Positions 50,731 to 61,092 of a stretch of 64,000 nt of DNA are shown one piece after another (position 1 is the first letter of the stretch; every line of letters starts with the position of its first letter). The notes beneath the pieces were generated by a model. That model made no database searches and was not told the origin of the DNA. It saw nothing but the letters and a program-made list of their open reading frames with translations. Position numbers and translations under genes: made by a program. The stretch is from Chrysomallon squamiferum (taxonomy: Eukaryota; Animalia; Mollusca). The stretch lies in NCBI GenBank assembly GCA_012295275.1, contig CM022673.1, forward strand, positions 6,138,001-6,202,000, read 5' to 3'.

Positions 50731-53668
50731 CTAATGATATTTATGGTATGGGAAATCGTATCCTATCTTGTCAAATGAGTAGTTTGTGCTATGTTTAGGT
50801 TTCTTATTTATAAATGGTTTGTCAGTAAATATCATATCACAGATTTTGTTCCCACAGGACATTCCCTCGAGTTCAAATACAACTACAAAGTTTTTGTCTG
50901 GGGAGTTTATCAAGACAGGTTTTGGAACATAGAGTGTAACTTGAGGCCCCTCTCCTGGCCAATAGCGTCCAATGTTAAAACCATTCACAATGGCTTGTCC
51001 CTGAAAAAATAAAACCAAAGGACAATTATACTGTGTGATTAAATCTTTTTTTAATTATTATTTTTTTTTCACCATAGAATACTATACAGTACAATATGTA
51101 CAGTTGATATAACAAAATATATAAGTAAATTAATCTATTAAAAATATAGAAGTTTCTTTTGAGTAAATCATTTCATGTTACAATTCCTCCAAAATGTAAA
51201 TAATAGAATTAAAAGCATTTTTTGTTATTGTTAAAAAATATATGTATATGTAAGTATAACATTTCTAGAATTGTGAATTACTATATTGGTAGTATTTTAG
51301 AAAAATAAAATATGCGGTTATGAAAACTGAGACTTGAATATGGTTGTTTTTTAATTAAAATTTGTAAAATGTAAAGAATAAATGAATTAGAGACATTTGT
51401 ACAAATTTAAAAAAAAAAAAAAAAGATGTAAAAGAAATAATAATTAAAATCACTATTACTGTCATTGCAGTAGTTTGTTTATAATACACTGTGATTATAA
51501 TTTATATTTTTAAAAATCTGATTTAAATACTAGGCACAACTCTGACCTTGACCCACAAGCTAGGGTCCAGGTATGTGTCCTGAGGCTGGTCATGTGACTG
51601 AGGTACAGCAATCTTTCCAAAGTAAACTGAAGGTGTTGTAAAATTTTGAGAAAATCTGGGTTGTAATCTAAAAAAACACATACAAGCAATAAATAACAAC
51701 AACAACAACAACAATAATAATAATTATAAAAACAATTCCTGATTTTATAACTGTAATAGTGCATATAAATTATTGTAAATTAATACATATTTAACTTTGA
51801 TGAATTATTATTTATATAACACTAATAATATTCATTTTTTAAGTGCACTTTTCTCTAAATTCTTTTTTTGAATATATGTAAATTTAAAAAAACCCAAGCC
51901 AAAACAAAATAATAATAATTATAATTATGTATGTATGTAAAATAAATAAATAAATAAATAAATAATAAAAAAGAACAAATGAAAGTAAAAATCAGTAAGA
52001 TATGTGCAAAAAATCTGAAATAAATTTGAATGTTTATCTAGTTAAGTGTCAGAAAATATTAGAAATATCAGGGATAAGCTGATATAAATCCTTTGTGTTT
52101 AGATGAATGTTGAATTATCCATCCTTGAATTTAGTAAATCCTAAAAGTTCATATGAGTATCTTAGATCCTGTGAATTCAGGTTGGTGCTGAGACAAATGA
52201 ATCCTAAGTACTGTGACAACTTTACAGATAAACTTTTCACAATTTATTCTGTGTGTAATTCCCACCTGGGTTTAAATCTCTGAAGCACAGTAACATTGAT
52301 GTGATCCAGATCAATTGGATATATCTCCCAGTCTTCAACAATAGTGTCACTTAGTGTAAGGTTCATGATAATACCCTGTGTAAAATAAAATATTCCTTTT
52401 ATAAAGTATGACATGACACCAGTAAAAAGATAATTGGGGAAAAACATTTTAAACTTGCAGAAATATTCATAAGTATTTTCTTTCTCATCATACACCTATA
52501 CCTAAAGTCTTAATAATATCTCAGTCAAAATTATCAACAAGTGAGGAATTTGTTTATTAGTCCCTTAACCTACATATATATCTGCATGTTCTTAAACAAG
52601 TATACCAGTCAGAAATATATGAACTAGTTACCTAAACATATATACTCACATATACTTTTATCTGTACACAAACATATATACTCATGCCCACATTTTACAA
52701 AAATCTTTGAATTCAATTTATAATCTGACTTTTTAATAACTCACCTTTCGGTTGAAATTCATGTCAATTCCATAACCTATTCTTCCCTGGTTTTCTACGA
52801 GTATGTCAAGAAATTGTCCTTCTTTACCAGTAATATTAACTCGCCACACAATATCTCTGTTAAACATTCCCATTGGAACCTGTCAGGTAGATGATTTGTA
52901 AATAAAACTGGAAATTCTAATATAATAACAAAAATCTGGAAATATTAAATAAATACTATTATCTATACTAGTATGGCTGCATGATTCTGCAGATGTAAAT
53001 TCATAACTGTATGTGTAATAGTAGCTATACTAATATATTTGCATTATTTCTCACATGTAAAATCAGCATAATATACATTAGCAAAATAATTTAGGAATGT
53101 TATTTTGGAAATGTAAGCACACACATATACATATATGTATCATATGATGTATGGATACATAAGTGTATAATTTACTTATATGAAGAAAAAAAAAAAGAAC
53201 AATTAAATAAATAAATACTTAAAGATGCTTCTACACATTTTGTTTTCTAATTTAATGATATTAAATGATTTAATAACTGCTGCCTTACTCTGGGTTATTC
53301 ATTCTGAACAGCAGCAAGGGATCTTTTACATATATAAAAGCCTTTGATATACCAATTGGGAACTGTGGTTGGAATGGGTAATTTCCAGACAGAAATGTAT
53401 TAACACACTACCATTGCTCTGAACTATAGTGAAATGAGTAAACATATTAAGTCATTTTTATTGCTTACCCCATCAACCATAACATATCCACGATCCCTTG
53501 TTCCGTTGGTTATAAGTGGTGTAGGAAGAAGTATATCCTTTTTTAATATATGACGATACAATATAAAACCATAATACTGAAAAAACAAAAAAAAAAGGTT
53601 AAAGATTAATATAAAAAATTAATTGTAAAAAATATTTGGAAAAAAAGAAATAAATTTCATTAACTAAT

Positions 53669-53728
<60 letters not shown>

Positions 53729-56700
53729 GATGTATTTTATTATACTTTAGCTACAATCTAAAACCAAAATAGATAACGCTGTTGAAAAACTGAAATATTT
53801 ATCATCCAGTGAATACAGAGTACTGTAAATTTGAATCTAACTAAATAAAATTATATTTTTAAAGTTTATTAGATACATAATGTAATTATGTTTATACTTA
53901 CACAAATTATGAAATTTGCAACTTATGTGAATATATTTAAAACAAAAATCTTAACCTAACAATTATTATAAATGTTAATGTATTACTCTGCTTTCAAAAC
54001 AAACAAAAACAAACAAAAAAACCCAAAGAAAAAGAAAATAACAATACATACAAATTTAATGTCCTCCATAGATAGAGGATATTTTGATTTCCACATTGAT
54101 CCACCACTTAATATTTCTAACAAATCTTGTACAGTACCAACCTATATTCATGAAAAGTAAAAACACAGTTTAATAAAGACTAAAAATATGTGGTGGACTT
54201 ATAGTTTAGAATCAAAGTTGTTTTAAGTATCATTAGAAGAGAAATATTTGCTAAATATCTCTTTTTTTTTTTATACAATTAAAGTAATTTCATTTTACAT
54301 TACAAAGGAATAAGAAGTAATGTATTTAATTTTTTAAACAAACAAAAAATCAGTAATACTATATTCAATAACAAAAACAACAAGAGAAACATGATATAAG
54401 TAGAACAAAAATTAGGAGTAAATTATGTACTTACAAGATTCATGTCCACGTTGCCGTATGGATATTTTGGTGTATTCGGTGGTATTGGCTCAGGAGGCAA
54501 CACATAGTACTGAAAACCAAATAATTTAAAAATAATAATTTTGTAGAATTCTTTACATGAAAGAAAAACAGAAAAACACAGACAGACAGACAGATAGAGA
54601 GAAACACTCAGATTTGCATTTAAGATCTTTTATTTTATTTTTAACTCATTTAATTAAATATAGTACATATTAAATGTGATATCAAAATAAAATAAAATAA
54701 AAAATTTAAGAATAAATTGAAAAAACAGAAGAAATACATCATTCACCTAAAATGAAAATAATTTAAACATTTTATACCTTTGAAATAACTTGTCTGATGG
54801 CAATGTATTTATCAGTAATATCACCACTTTCATTCAGGGGTGCATCATAATCATAACTGGTTGGAACAGGCCCATATGGTGGACCATTGGCACCTGTAAC
54901 AGTCAAAAGCAAACAGCCCATAGGTAAAACACAAAGAAGTACATAATTACATTTTAAAATGCCAAACAAAATATTAATTAATTAATAATGTTTAGAAAAC
55001 TGAACTAACCATTCCAATATCCAAAATTGGTTCCACCTTCAAACATATACCTGAAATTAAAAATAGGTGTTATAACTATATAAAAATTCTATTTTATTCC
55101 AATTTCTTGTTATGCAGCATCAAACAATAATAACAGATTCCTATATGTATATAATATACAATTCACTCTAACTACCATACATATACAAGCAGTATATCAA
55201 AGGAAATAATAATAATAATAATAATAATAATTAAAAAACACACTTTCCTTTGTGATGATGTACATGGATGAAACCTATCCTAACTGCTTCTCTCAGCATT
55301 TAATATCACTACATCTTTGAAAAAAACTTCACACATGACTAACAAAAAAAAATAATATCCGTCTTTTCGTTCAAATTCGTAATTCTGAATAACTGTTTAC
55401 ATAATTTACAGTTAAACTTGAAAAACAAACAGCAGAATATCAAAGCCTTTGAATGAAAACTGAATTAAATATTTCATTATTTTTATTATTATTTTGTTCA
55501 TAACTTGCTTCTTTAAATACCTCTAAACATGTTAAATACCTTTGATTTTCATTAACATACCTCATTAGCTGCACTGTCAGATTTCCAGGCTTTGTCAGTC
55601 ATTATCATTATCCTAATTCATATCATTACTAATCTATTACAGAGAGAATGAAACAGATCTGATTTCAAGAACACTGTTTGAAATTAAGAATACCCATACC
55701 AAAATACCCCAAAACATCGTAAATTATAGACTGACATGTTAACATTAGCACCAAGGTTGAGAATCTTGTCAAGGCACTTGGTGCACGGAGCCCAGTTCAG
55801 TTGTGAGTGACGTGACCCCCAGTGATCCAGCCAGCCAGTGTAGTATTCTGAATTGACCTGAAATACAATCAGTGATGTCATCATAATTACTGTTCTGTTT
55901 TACCTCTCTTAAGTTTATTATTTTAAATCCAAATAATCTTAATTAGTAATTGAGTATAAAATTAACATTAATAGAATATTAGTATTATTATGATTTTCTT
56001 TTTTTACAATGTTAGGTAATTGTAAAAGTTACTGTCAGAAAAATGAATCATATAAGTATTAAAAATGTACTTAGATAATTTATGTATGCCATCAAAAATT
56101 CACCATATTCATAAAGACAGCAGGTAAATGTTTCCAGTAATTAATAACAGAGCATTAATTGTAATGTGTAAAAAGCCAGGAAGGTGTATAACTATGGTCT
56201 TGCCTTTTGTTTTATTTCTTCTTTTTTTAAATCTGGTTTTGTAACAAGGGGAATAAATTTAACAGAGGAACCAACATGGATCATAATGTAGTAATGGTTG
56301 ATGGTTGTGGTGACAATCATTATGGTAGTAATAATTAGATGACTATTATTCTTTTACATTTAATTTTATTAATAATAAAAAGAAAATATGTTTGACAACT
56401 GTTTTTTGTTTTTTAATTTACCAGTGGTCCATTTGGTTCAAAGTCTCTCTGAAATTTGAAGTTCCTTGCTGGGTTATCTGTTAAATTAAGTAAAATAAAC
56501 ACATAAATAATTTTAAGGTCGTTTTATAATTTTATTTTAGTAACGAAAGTAATTTAATAGAAGTAATAGTGATAGTGCTTGTGGTAATGGTAGAATACTT
56601 GTAATGATATTTCAGTAATACTAATAACTGAGCTGCAGTACTAATATTAATCATAGCAGGAACAGAAGTAACTGATGGAAGTAGAAGAACTGTTAGTAGT

Positions 56701-59318
56701 ATTAGCAATAATAATAGTAATAAGGAAGTTATTACCTTCAACAGTAATAGTAGTATCACTAATAGTAATACTAGCAATGTTTATAGTAATAATAATAATA
56801 TTAGGAATGTTTGTAGTAATAAAATTAATAGCAGTTAAAGTAATTGGTGTTACACTGACTGTTGAGTTGATTTAATAGATGATATAGAAAAAAGTACAAA
56901 CTTGTGACACCAAAATCTACAGTGCTGTAAACTCCTTTGAGTGTCCCACATCTTAGGTAGGAGTCAGCATCTCCATCAGTTGTGTACAAAACTTGAGTGG
57001 GACCCAAAATACTCTGTGCTTTTTCATGCAAGAAACTTAAATATTCGTAATCGCATGCAAAATAGCTTCCATACTCATTCTCGATCTGCAAGACAGAAAT
57101 CGTAAGAAAAGCCATGCATCTATGAAAAATTCAGAAGCATGGGAATGTAAATACGGGATGGGTAACCAGGTAGTCAATGTAGTGAATAATTTTCTTCTTC
57201 CACAGATTAGAAGGCTGTTTTGCAAAATTGTGTGAAAAATATTTTTAACTCAAGGCATTTTTGCTTAAATGGCATACACCACCAGAACTGCTGGGGAAAC
57301 TAATATCTGTATGCTTGTCATATTCCAATTCCAATAACAGGTCAAAAAAGTGTGGTGAAATTCAGGTGTCTGCATTTTGTCTTTAATAATACAGTCAGTG
57401 TGTATGAATTGTTGCAACTTCACCTTTTCTGTTCCATTCTTTGACTGACACAATATCAGCAACTATAGCAGATTGATTTACTTAAGATGTTTGCTTTATT
57501 TATTTTTCAATTTCTGTATGTGATGAGATTGTTTTCACTTTCATTCACTTCACTATGGCTATACTGAAAAACAAGGTTGCCACTTCTAATATAAATCTAA
57601 AGAAGAAGCACTCATACATTAAGTACCTTATCCAACAAAAGAAAAGTGTTGTTTTCACACCTGTTAGTATGTAACTTTATCCGGGCAACCAATACTATGA
57701 ATAAACTAACAATCACAATACTGCAAACATGCAAAAAACTTATAGATATGCCACGAACCTACAGGAGCACATGAACTCACAGGTATACTATGGACCTAGG
57801 CTATAGGCACACCATAAATACTACTGTGAAAAATAACAAACCCTGCCATGAACCTAATCGCATACTTAGATACTACACATAGACATGCAGCAAAATATTA
57901 GTGGAAACCTAAAGGCATACCACATGCAAATACCTTGATACAAAATCATTTTTATACTAACAACTGAAGCCAAAATCAACTGTGCTGTATATTCCTTCAA
58001 GAGTCCCACACTTGAGGTCACTATCAGAATCACCATCAGTTGTAAAGATAACAGTACTAGTACCAAGAACTCTCCTCACTTTGTGGTAAAGAAATCTTAA
58101 ATAGTCATAATCACAAGCATAATAGCTGCCATATTCATTTTCAATCTGAAAAAATTATATTGCATGATGCTAAACAATATGAAAAAAGAAATAAAAGAGA
58201 AATATATATGTATGTATATTTATATATATTGATATATAAAAGAAAGTTGAAACAATATAAAAATAAGAAAATATAAAATATAAAAACATATATATTTCAT
58301 TTCATTTTAGAAAGCTTCTCATAGGAAAGGAAAGAGAATTAGGACAATTCAGAAATTTCATTCCAACCAATACACAAAGGATGAATATATGTTTTTCAAA
58401 GCATATAACTGATATAAAACTGTATTAAAGTTCATGGAAAATATTAATCATGCATGACCTATCCAATGACATTTACGAAGCATAATATACTATACTTCAT
58501 TAGAAAACTGACAGATTTAAATCGAAACAGAAATGGAATTCAAAGAAATTAAATAAAAAATAAAAAATAATAATGGTAATAACACCCTTCTACCAACAAT
58601 GAAATAAAATAAATCAAAACAGAAAAATAATTGCAATTAATCATATGTAAAAATAATAAAAACCAATGGAAAATATTTTATGCTACTTACTTGCACCATA
58701 ATTATGGGTCCACCATTTTCATAGAGGTACGGTTTTAACTTTGGAAGTAAAACATCATACCATCTATCCACAGCTGACAAATAGGCTTAAACAGAAATCA
58801 GATTATTAGTGTCATTGGCAACTTTAGTCAAACATTTGATTATTTCAATTCTGAGAAATTCTTATTTGTTTTTCTGTAACAGCAGTGATTCTTTCAAGTG
58901 CATTTTACCCCTGACATGAATGAACGTGAGCACACAGCTATACACAAATATTTTTCATTAAAAAACTCCAGCCTATAAATGAAATATCAAAGCTGTGCAT
59001 ATTGGTAAATATACCTACTTGGATCTGAAGTTCTGACAACCATTTTTGGATTGATGTTTAACAACCAGGCTGGTAGACCTCCCTAGAAAACAAAGCTAAT
59101 TAAACACTTACGCCTCAGATTTATAATTTAAAATACAAATACATCATTTTATTTACAATAGAAAAAAAGAACAAAGTATTACCAAAAAGAAATTAATGTG
59201 TATTAGTATTATTATTATGTTCTAAAAATAATTCATCAAAGTTAAATATGTAATAATTTGCAGTAATTTATATGAACTATGACAACCATAAAATCAGAAA
59301 TTCTTATTATCATTATTA

Positions 59319-59365
<47 letters not shown>

Positions 59366-61092
59366 TACCATCTTTAGAAATAGGAAATTTCTTTTCAGAT
59401 ATAAAACTTACAAATTCCCACTCTCCACAAATGTAAGGACCTGATCGAAGTAAGACCACAAGACCAACTTCCTGGGCTAGCTGAAGAAACTTTTCAAGAT
59501 CAGCCAGTCCTGTCCAGACATACTCCTCTGGATTAGGATTATGAATATTCCATGGAACGTAACTTGAAAATTGAGAAGATTTAAAAAAAAATTAAAAATT
59601 AAACAAAAAACAGGTATTTTCTTTTATATATCATTTATATTATACTTGTCAGCAGTACTTTATTCTTTATTCTGATTTTCTTAATTTGTGTCAGATGAAT
59701 GGTCTTTTGTACAAGGACAAACTCTTATCAAAGAAATTAAGATCTTTTACAAGCTCTTCTTGTGGTCCAAAAAAAATAAAAATAAAAATAAAATGGACAC
59801 TGGATAAAGAATTTTATTTCAGGAAGTTACTGAATATGAATGTACTTTTTTCTAACTTACGTCTGTACTGCATTTAAACCAGCAATCCTCATCTTCTGCA
59901 GCCTGTCTTTCCAGTAGTATGGATGAACTCTGGCATAATGCAGACTGCCTGACACATAGCGGAATGGTTTGCCATCCTTCAGAAAGGTTGGTGCTGAGCT
60001 ATCAATAGTAAAACTATGATTCTGATTCTGTATAAAGAGAACAGAAGAAAAAAAGAACAAAAATTACTAGTATTATTGTTGCTGGTACAACTATTGCTAT
60101 GTTAAGAAAGATTAGTACATAAAGAAGTTACTTAATAAGATATTTTTACTTCCTTGACCTTGTCTCTTTTATATAAATTATGTATTTTCAATGACCCATG
60201 ATGACAGTATAAAATCACTGAACAGAAAAGTAATTATTAATAAATATAAATTATTACATATGTATTTATATGAATCAAAAGACATTCAGTCCCAGAGCCA
60301 GATGAGTTAACACCCATAAGTTTGAAGATATTTAAATAAAATTGACAAAAATATCATATTTCACAAGTGTCATTAAATCCACTCCAAATGTAGGCATTTT
60401 AAAATTTTCAAGAAAACGTCAACCTTAAGCCATAAAATCCTAATTTCAAGAGGTATCTTTATGAAATTTTATCAAATTTGCACAATCTGTTAAGTAAAGT
60501 GTTCTCTTTTTAATGACTTTAATAGTGGTAGATTTAACTTAATTAAATATTGTTTTGGGCCTATTTCAACTGATATATGAATGTGAGATCATGCCTGAGT
60601 AAGATCTGTTGTTCATGAATTGATATTTTTTCTATTATTTTGATGTTTACTCGTGAAGACGACCGTACAAAATTGTCGTTCCTGAGCGGTTACCTTTTTC
60701 GCTTCATTTTCATTTTTCTGATTTACAGTTACGTTTTTATTACAAATTCCCCTAACAAAATATTTGATCTCATTCTGGTTTTAAACATAAAGTAAATTAA
60801 CGAAACATTTTGAGTTTGGGTAGTCGTCAATTTCTGAAGAAAACAAGTGGTAGCATGCGTCCCTAGCGGCGGTTAGCATGGCTACATTATGACTTAGTCA
60901 AATTAGTGATAATGCTAAAGTATATTCAGTTTGGAATATGAAAATTATTAACAATTTCACAAACAGAAACAGCATCATTTGTTTTAAAAGGATATTTATG
61001 AATATTTATTTTAAATTTACCAAACAACACGAAATCGGAAATAACACAACTAAAATCAAGCCAAACAAATATCCGCCCCTAGGAAGATCCAT
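50731..61092 (-). CDS. GLB1: Lysosomal beta-galactosidase (glycoside hydrolase family 35), multi-exon gene, ~658 aa
   Basis: Exons assembled by hand, all GT-AG and phase-consistent: 61092-61021 ([24 protein letters not shown], signal peptide), 60027-59861 ([20 protein letters not shown]...GLNAVQT), 59562-59412 (YVPWNIH...[12 protein letters not shown]), 59082-59019 (GGLPAWL), 58785-58691 (NGGPIIMVQ), 58145-57962 OR 57085-56902 (IENEYGSY), 56477-56422, 55857-55736 ([14 protein letters not shown], nucleophile Glu), 55050-55010 ([10 protein letters not shown]), 54893-54778 (TSYDYDAPL), 54509-54435, 54141-54052, 53576-53469 (YGFILYR), 52879-52745 ([10 protein letters not shown]), 52375-52266, 51667-51547, 51000-50731 ([14 protein letters not shown], stop). 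Total is 1977 nt with one copy of exon 6. The motifs are diagnostic of GH35 (established knowledge). Confidence 0.96.
53291..53390 (-). mobile_element. Degenerate dispersed repeat (SINE-like) in a GLB1 intron
   Basis: AGCAGCAAGGGATCTTTTA...GCCTTTGATATACCA...TGGTTGGAATGGG. Similar to 15263-15360 and to a gastropod SINE body (recalled, unverified). Confidence 0.4.
53671..53723. repeat. (AG)n microsatellite in a GLB1 intron
   Basis: Perfect dinucleotide run. Confidence 0.95.
56535..56850. repeat. Degenerate (AGT/AAT)n tract filling the intron between GLB1 exon 6b and exon 7
   Basis: Directly visible. Confidence 0.8.
56902..57085 (-). CDS. GLB1: GLB1 exon 6b (downstream copy of the duplicated catalytic exon)
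   Basis: tgcag|ATC GAG AAT GAG ... GTC ACA A|gtttgt. 184 nt, phase 0 to 1, no stops: [61 protein letters not shown]. Confidence 0.9.
57025..58454 (-). promoter_or_regulatory. Cluster of seven UGCAUG (RBFOX-binding) splicing-regulatory motifs around GLB1 exons 6a/6b
   Basis: Plus-strand CATGCA begins at 57025, 57054, 57113, 57728, 57884, 57923 and 58449. Confidence 0.6.
57962..58145 (-). CDS. GLB1: GLB1 exon 6a (upstream copy of the duplicated catalytic exon; not shown in the correct frame by the ORF track)
   Basis: ttcag|ATT GAA AAT GAA ... TTC AGT T|gttagt. 184 nt, phase 0 to 1, no stops: [61 protein letters not shown]. Confidence 0.9.

Follow-up and report, generated by a model that had tools for sequence, protein, structure and literature searches.

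Does one animal beta-galactosidase gene make two enzymes by choosing between two copies of the exon that carries its acid/base glutamate? The question is raised by a 64,000-nucleotide (nt) stretch of DNA from Chrysomallon squamiferum (contig CM022673.1, positions 6,138,001 to 6,202,000; "the window" means this whole stretch), the minus strand of which holds a complete GH35 beta-galactosidase gene with two copies of exon 6 in tandem. An earlier note on this DNA had proposed that the two copies are spliced mutually exclusively. We favor, at a probability of roughly 0.7, the reading that they form a tandem exon pair under selection, that one or the other is spliced in, that an Rbfox switch makes the choice, and that the swap changes a loop beside the aglycone site. 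The features on which the argument turns are these:

50731..61092, minus strand: GH35 beta-galactosidase gene, 17 exon positions, complete
61092-61021, minus strand: exon 1, predicted from sequence, with a signal-peptide-like start
58691..58785, minus strand: exon 5, the common upstream exon, ending in phase 0 with donor CAA followed by gtaagt
57962..58145, minus strand: exon 6a, upstream copy, a-type (Asp at human position 227), 184 nt, acceptor used in RNA run X4
58134..58136, minus strand: acid/base glutamate codon of 6a (human Glu188), placed by alignment to the human chain; residue role from the available part of PMC6566704
58017..58019, minus strand: codon for the 6a Asp that aligns with human position 227 (loop 5 and its short helix)
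56902..57085, minus strand: exon 6b, downstream copy, b-type (Tyr at human position 227), 184 nt, spliced at both ends
57074..57076, minus strand: acid/base glutamate codon of 6b (human Glu188), placed and sourced as for 6a
56957..56959, minus strand: Tyr codon of 6b at human position 227, placed by alignment
56422..56477, minus strand: exon 7, the common downstream exon, whose first two bases complete the split codon

Both copies are stop-free, run from phase 0 to phase 1, are preceded by cag, and are followed by gttagt (6a) or gtttgt (6b). They are identical at 40 of 61 residues and 127 of 184 bases, and identity at codon positions 1, 2, and 3 is 46, 52, and 29 of 61. The coordinates, flanks, and 40/61 identity given in the earlier note were thus confirmed on the minus strand. 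Its hexamers for two non-consensus donors are also correct, but gttagt is not peculiar to 6a, as constitutive exon 9 shares it. Exon 6 was the sole exon of the gene matched twice by tblastn with three mollusc proteins, and either copy, together with exon 8, supplies the marks of GH35 (the Asn-Glu motif, the nucleophile Glu, Asp241, and two loop cysteines). A quick tree of 41 rows, built with exon 6 removed, put the window gene with those of gastropods (support 99) and made vertebrate GLB1 and GLB1L sister groups (support 99); the closest gastropod was Haliotis, with 73% identity. By this tree the gene is a co-orthologue of GLB1 and GLB1L, not of GLB1 alone as its earlier name implied, and one-to-one orthology with vertebrate GLB1 was rejected.

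Sequence comparison of the two copies speaks to their age and to selection. The proportions of synonymous (pS) and nonsynonymous (pN) differences between 6a and 6b are 0.70 and 0.20, which gives a pN/pS of 0.29 (bootstrap 0.18-0.44) and a corrected dN/dS of about 0.12. Among 159 distinct homologous exons, 24 columns are at least 90% conserved, and 6a and 6b each retain 24 of these 24. The copies differ at 56 of 183 bases; in simulation, 20 neutral changes left all 24 columns intact in 0.03% of runs. Nineteen of the 40 residues common to both copies are written with different codons, and the 300-nt flanks of 6a and 6b, on either side, aligned poorly, fractions of 0.68 and 0.855 of the shuffles scoring at least as well. 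On these comparisons both copies are old and constrained at the protein level. The divergent codons, the unrelated flanking introns, and purifying selection on an old duplication, all claimed in the earlier note, were borne out.

The length of the exon makes the choice between copies consequential for the reading frame. With 6a alone or 6b alone, the frame is open through exon 14. With both copies in one mRNA, a stop falls within the first 11 nt of 6b; with neither, a stop falls in exon 8, so that the predicted frame break of both forms held. Read-through at the 6a donor meets a stop two codons past the exon. Stops far upstream of the last exon junction expose an mRNA to decay, and because the stops of the both, neither, and read-through forms lie there, decay of these mis-spliced mRNAs is expected.

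We then asked which forms appear in RNA. The stretch was found in five runs, four of which are RNA and come from one study. We compared window positions 55650-59150 (exons 1-3 and 9-17 lie outside) with assembled contigs, from which rare forms drop out, of three RNA runs (X1, X2, and X4) and of one run of unknown kind (X5). The junctions 5>6b (58691>57085) and 6b>7 (56902>56477) were present in all three RNA runs (depth 13, 19.1, and 35.4). The junction 5>6a (58691>58145) was present in one of the three (X4; depth 3.25; short side 28 nt). The junctions 6a>6b (57962>57085) and 5>7 were absent from the contigs of the three runs, which drop rare forms. Four other introns also had RNA cover, so unspliced material, either pre-mRNA or DNA, is present. 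In the sampled RNA, then, 6b is the product and 6a is seen only half-spliced, in contigs from which a rare mature 6a mRNA could have dropped out.

Two features of the cover itself were noted. Positions 57293-58145, taking in 6a plus roughly 650 nt of the following intron, were covered at depth 3-5 in the three runs, and intron 5 and positions 57171-57287 were nearly bare of contigs in the same runs. In this one study, the cover over 6a and the following intron may represent a stalled intermediate or an intronic end.

The same data bear on a further alternative, namely, that the duplication was recent and left one copy as a neutral relic or that the pair is an assembly artefact. Run X5 yielded only short repeat-like pieces and covered no exon and so provides no DNA control, which leaves this alternative some room. 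It conflicts, however, with synonymous sites near saturation, with intact conserved residues, and with RNA contigs that fit 6a, 6b, and the intervening intron at 95% or better. It also conflicts with metagenome locus L002 (oyster-type by its protein), which has the same arrangement: the a copy (190 nt, 670-859) comes first and the b copy (184 nt, 1901-2084) second, as in the window, and exon 7 follows; both copies are 3n+1 in length. A bivalve-type locus, L001, has one exon 6 copy, and the other 12 metagenome loci showed no tandem pair. We regard the relic or artefact alternative, the latter named in the earlier note as a possible undoing, as extremely improbable and, for practical purposes, refuted. 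The two-copy arrangement is real.

The swap was also found in other molluscs. When same-species protein sets were compared exon by exon, 11 of 26 differed at exon 6 alone or nearly so, by 9 to 25 substitutions (six oysters, four mussels, and Patella caerulea), and the swap was not seen in the other 15. The two members of the Magallana gigas pair come from different annotation versions and also differ at six scattered places outside exon 6. The expectation that gene predictors would annotate only one copy was therefore mistaken, both forms being annotated in 11 mollusc species. Logan contigs encode full-length mussel proteins of both types, a 2,025-nt contig the a-type (662 amino acids) and contigs of 2,298 and 3,157 nt the b-type; because the a-type protein is full length on its contig, the mussel a-type exon is spliced at both ends. 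In four models of NCBI or UniRef the two copies are wrongly joined, the a-type first each time. Mutually exclusive splicing thus stands for use of 6b at both ends, for the 6a acceptor, and for the either/or choice in related molluscs, and falls short at a mature 6a mRNA in the window. Taken together, we consider either/or splicing with two working proteins very probable.

How the a-type copies arose is less simple. The Patella caerulea pair is identical over the first 39 residues and differs only in the last 22, from loop 5 onward, which points to a young duplication or to gene conversion. Two Babylonia proteins differ at 11 of 61 exon 6 residues and at 28 of 579 elsewhere (P 0.0005), with D at position 227 in one and Y in the other; they look like young paralogues. 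A single clade of nine a-types was rejected (p-AU 0.0135). Smaller clades were not rejected (window a plus b, p-AU 0.61; bivalve a-types, 0.48; window a plus Patella a, 0.19), in a quick search that missed a better tree, with 61 columns that resolve little and with gene conversion as a possible source of error. A group-table value of "changes 1" was discarded as clade evidence, only two labelled groups having been compared. Copy order and motif positions, both of them shared, speak for one origin of the a-types, whereas the tree tests reject the clade of nine but not the smaller clades.

Several further variants surfaced in these protein sets. Exon 10 (window equivalent 55050-54778) is swapped in Dreissena, Sinanodonta, and Potamilus, with the same two types in all three, and exons 9 and 10 together are swapped in one Pomacea gene (P0012/P0005, P0038/P0150, P0152/P0151, and P0009/P0004 for the four genera); the window has single copies of exons 9 and 10. 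Duplication of other active-site exons in different mollusc lineages suggests repeated selection for active-site variety. Five oyster species have an optional insert of 16-17 residues near exon 9 (window 55050-55010), freely combined with the exon 6 swap (e.g., P0187/P0157). Argopecten X1 and X2 (P0211/P0101) differ at a single residue, the first of exon 6, which could hide a near-identical second copy.

To understand what the swap might change, we mapped exon 6 onto the human enzyme, to which it aligns without gaps at residues 185-245 (numbered here as in the literature; the aligned chain is numbered one higher). According to the available part of PMC6566704, this span includes Asn187, the acid/base Glu188, and Asp241. 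Glu188 is present in both copies, as the earlier note had claimed. A predicted model of the Patella a-type protein P0142 (pLDDT 85.7) matched human beta-galactosidase best (TM 0.87) and has a TIM barrel and two beta domains; this model stands in for the window's own spliced protein. In it, exon 6 supplies the end of strand 4, loop 4, helix 4, strand 5, loop 5 with a short helix, and strand 6, and residue 227 falls within the short helix of loop 5. In a GH35 enzyme of Lactobacillus casei, the loop 5 residue Trp190 is predicted to line subsite +1 (PMC10432377, available part).

Position 227 sorts the copies consistently. In the window, as in 11 of 11 pairs, one copy has D, E, or N there and the other Y or F; the position is aromatic in 27 of 30 other mollusc proteins, the exceptions being one Babylonia protein, one Aplysia paralogue, and Solemya. 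Among vertebrates it is acidic in 0 of 61 GLB1 and 52 of 52 GLB1L proteins. In a search made without a word index and sorted by the exon minus its loop, E was found in 18 of 19 GLB1L-like proteins and was absent from 14 of 15 GLB1-like ones; the odd GLB1-like protein with E is GLB1L by its full length. Of three differences between the copies that had been listed at the outset, the D versus Y of loop 5 thus recurs across species, whereas SYY/SYF and the end of the exon are not sorted by copy type. A whole-exon likeness of 6a to GLB1L was rejected, the resemblance lying in column 227; it would reflect convergence or an old dimorphism rather than descent of 6a from GLB1L. Among unnamed representatives (P0270-P0415), D, E, or N occupied position 227 in 38 of 130 parsed matches, many of them non-vertebrate-looking, and animals may widely share the dimorphism. 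Of the a-like exons, that of P0273 comes closest to 6a, but its conserved motifs are altered.

A changed aglycone preference as the main effect of the swap seems to us an even bet. The competing idea is that the exons are indeed mutually exclusive and that the swap mainly alters stability, pH optimum, or partner binding at the cathepsin A surface. The pKa of the acid/base Glu could be shifted by a carboxylate introduced nearby. The GLB1-cathepsin A interface spans residues 198-260, with Arg201 and Asp198 central (PMC8115914, in the part available), and by alignment exon 6 holds most of this contact surface; window 6a retains Arg201 and Asp198, and 6b has Ser and Glu there. Position 201, however, is not sorted by copy type, being Ala/Ala or Asn/Ala in oyster pairs and Arg/Arg in mussel and limpet pairs, and the Patella pair differs only from loop 5 onward. 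We consider this idea unlikely. The papers PMC7504770 and PMC6646740 contain nothing on residue 227. In the available part of PMC10607238, the oyster b-type isoform X4 was active on beta-1,3 and beta-1,4 galactosides at pH 3.5.

If one copy or the other is chosen, what might make the choice? On the sense strand of this 10.4-kb gene, the hexamer TGCATG, the DNA form of the Rbfox-type motif UGCAUG, occurs seven times, and seven of seven lie between exon 5 and the end of 6b:

58449..58454, minus strand: one TGCATG outside these two groups of three, within intron 5 and 309 nt ahead of 6a
57928-57923, 57889-57884, 57733-57728, minus strand: three TGCATG, candidate 6a enhancers, 34, 73, and 229 nt downstream of 6a
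57118-57113, 57059-57054, 57030-57025, minus strand: three TGCATG, candidate 6b silencers, the first 33 nt before 6b and the others within it at +27 and +56

The 1,060 nt after 6a contain six TGCATG, compared with 0.69 in dinucleotide shuffles (P 0.0005), and 1 of 630 windows of that size reached six on the same strand. Where two of the motifs lie inside 6b, 6a uses other codons. Locus L002 has three between its copies, compared with 0.44 expected (P 0.0095), including one 78 nt after a and one 24 nt before b. TGCATG ranks first among hexamers common to the inter-exon introns of the window and L002, and alignment of these two introns was no better than shuffles. Thus, in both loci UGCAUG follows the a copy and precedes or lies in the b copy, at conserved positions. 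An exon is usually enhanced when Rbfox binds downstream of it, and binding upstream is linked to repression, a less clean rule (PMC11874969, available part); in the accessible portion of PMC3585155, RBFOX proteins control two worm exon pairs via UGCAUG.

The splice sites are consistent with such a helper. The 6a donor with its exonic bases makes 5 of 9 matches to U1 and is among the three weakest of 14 donors scored; a weak donor that stalls without a helper fits the contigs that remain unspliced there. Other devices for exclusive splicing fared worse. Steric exclusion was rejected: 876 nt separate the two copies, and in that intron a branch-like YTRAY is reached after 61 nt and is followed by seven others. 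Incompatibility of U12 and U2 sites was rejected as well, all scored donors being GT and of the major type. A search for pairing between a docking site and selector RNA returned 78 inverted repeats, of which the 25 longest are mostly A+T-rich and none stands out.

Collectively, the motif clusters and the frame logic suggest a tissue switch backed by nonsense-mediated decay. Default splicing would take 6b and give the ordinary enzyme, aromatic at 227. Where Rbfox is present, it would bind UGCAUG downstream of 6a and aid the weak 6a donor, and it would also bind upstream of and inside 6b and block it, so that the output flips to 6a, for which we infer a mature mRNA in this species. Nonsense-mediated decay would clear mRNAs with both copies or neither. 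The 6a enzyme would keep the same catalytic residues and carry an acidic residue 227 in loop 5 beside the aglycone (+1) site, and it would likely have another glycan preference. For Rbfox control in particular, we put the chances at about half.

A number of observations weigh against this reading, beginning with the RNA, which consists of contigs of one study and three of its four RNA runs. The 6a>7 junction (57962>56477) was not seen in the contigs of the three RNA runs, and contigs cross the 6a donor unspliced in all three; the sole 5>6a contig (X4) runs on unspliced to 57847. The absence of a 6a>7 contig does not mean that the isoform is absent, because contigs drop rare forms. These results could instead indicate that 6a is an unproductive regulatory exon, in which splicing from 5 to 6a is followed by a retained intron or an intronic poly(A) end and enzyme output is lowered. 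Intron cover from 58145 down to about 57300 in all three RNA runs, the stop just past 6a on read-through, and poly(A) signals behind 6a (AATAAA at 57504 and ATTAAA at 57387) are in line with this, and exons 3-6 of human GLB1 are alternatively spliced, with some forms decayed (PMC2631023). A poison exon, however, would not need all of its conserved residues or a low pN/pS. The other covered introns indicate pre-mRNA or DNA, the cover passes both poly(A) signals, and the mussel a-type transcript is spliced at both ends. We therefore judge an unproductive 6a to be improbable, somewhat more so than an effect on stability or partner binding.

The remaining points against the favored reading concern its other parts. 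One TGCATG lies upstream of 6a; the hexamer was noticed before it was tested, which makes the statistics post hoc, and two loci carry the comparison. The single-copy locus L001 has seven TGCATG in 8.2 kb. Within the window, a second cluster of four occurs on the minus strand at 35511-35197 and could mark a regulated exon or be due to chance. The 11 isoform sets represent three lineages and are automatic models. Residue 227 was placed by alignment and by a predicted model, and the bacterial +1 residue probably maps nearer human 222-224, an estimate from spacing rather than an alignment. The set of 52 GLB1L proteins was drawn by a-type queries, one GLB1L-like fragment (P0331) has a shortened loop and Gly at 227, and another fragment has Ala. 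Once column 227 is removed, the window's 6a has no edge over 6b in likeness to GLB1L (score difference -0.3), and the Patella pair shows the opposite (-6.2). Finally, we found no enzyme assay of an a-type form in the literature; the oyster b-type X4 is the one form characterized, as far as the available part of PMC10607238 extends.

If the favored reading is correct, the pair would be a clean case, common to gastropods and bivalves, in which splicing swaps the catalytic core of a glycosidase. Mollusc exon copies, mollusc paralogues, and vertebrate GLB1L all repeat one change of residue class at 227, in which an aromatic residue gives way to an acidic or amide one. As the oyster b-type has already been expressed and assayed, the function of the matching a-type is directly testable and bears on the role of GLB1L, the substrate of which, to our knowledge, is poorly known. 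A broader scheme would have two recurrent types of animal GH35 enzyme, aromatic or acidic at 227, which vertebrates hold as two genes and gastropods and bivalves as one Rbfox-switched exon pair, possibly ancestral. Under that scheme, a mollusc isoform pair that is identical outside one exon would be a natural controlled experiment on the substrate to which the little-studied GLB1L type is tuned; we offer it tentatively and think it rather doubtful.

Two neighbors of the gene were recorded in passing. Directly past it on the minus strand, at 48955-47510, open reading frames indicate a short-chain dehydrogenase gene that resembles, as we presume from its motifs, sepiapterin reductase. Also on the minus strand, 43125-40294 is a 944-codon open frame rich in Ser and Thr; near 41280-41100 a unit of about 15 residues is repeated imperfectly several times.

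How does this pair compare with known systems? A full-text literature search, outside which most subscription journals lie, turned up no account of a beta-galactosidase gene with a duplicated exon, and a survey of mollusc glycoside hydrolases (PMC7560691) makes no mention of splicing. GLB1 and galactosidase are absent from the main texts of two human catalogues of mutually exclusive exons derived by tandem duplication (PMC8373072 and PMC9741552, available parts), whose supplements might list them. The oyster enzyme paper lists four isoforms, expresses only X4, and in its available part does not use the words exon and splicing (PMC10607238). NCBI, in turn, holds automatic isoforms with the same exon swapped and the same contrast at 227 (XP_062569953.1; XP_071158147.1/XP_071158148.1; KAK6165619.1/KAK6165620.1); these oyster, mussel, and Patella isoforms have the same copy order where it is known and differ from the window pair in being database models. 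The splicing device is therefore known, and the earlier note's impression of novelty stands in part: the exon pair in this gene sits in databases as automatic isoforms and is apparently undescribed.

Like the exons in the two catalogues, 6a and 6b are homologous tandem exons of like length and phase, old and conserved, whose isoforms differ in one homologous segment and which recur in separate lineages; in the available parts of those sources, the enzyme cases include ACOX1, which is said to have arisen three times, once in molluscs (PMC8373072 and PMC9741552). Unlike those cases, the exon here carries a catalytic residue and is 3n+1 in length. Vertebrate GLB1 and GLB1L show the same contrast at 227, aromatic or hydrophobic versus acidic, in two genes from a vertebrate duplication rather than in two exons of one gene. 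In the human GLB1 event that yields elastin-binding protein (PMC2631023), exon 6 is also alternative and decay of frameshifted forms is involved, but exons 3, 4, and 6 are skipped, the protein is inactive, and no exon is duplicated. The nearest mollusc precedent is the duplicated exon 10 of oyster alternative oxidase (PMC5589949, available part), which gives two enzyme variants and has a divergent, normally minor upstream copy; that exon is terminal, belongs to a mitochondrial oxidase, and is under no frame constraint. In its candidate control, the window pair resembles Caenorhabditis elegans egl-15 5A/5B and unc-32 7a/7b, in which UGCAUG lies beside a mutually exclusive pair and egl-15 is repressed from the upstream intron (PMC3585155, available part). 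The worm pairs were shown genetically to be RBFOX targets, whereas motif position points to such control here.

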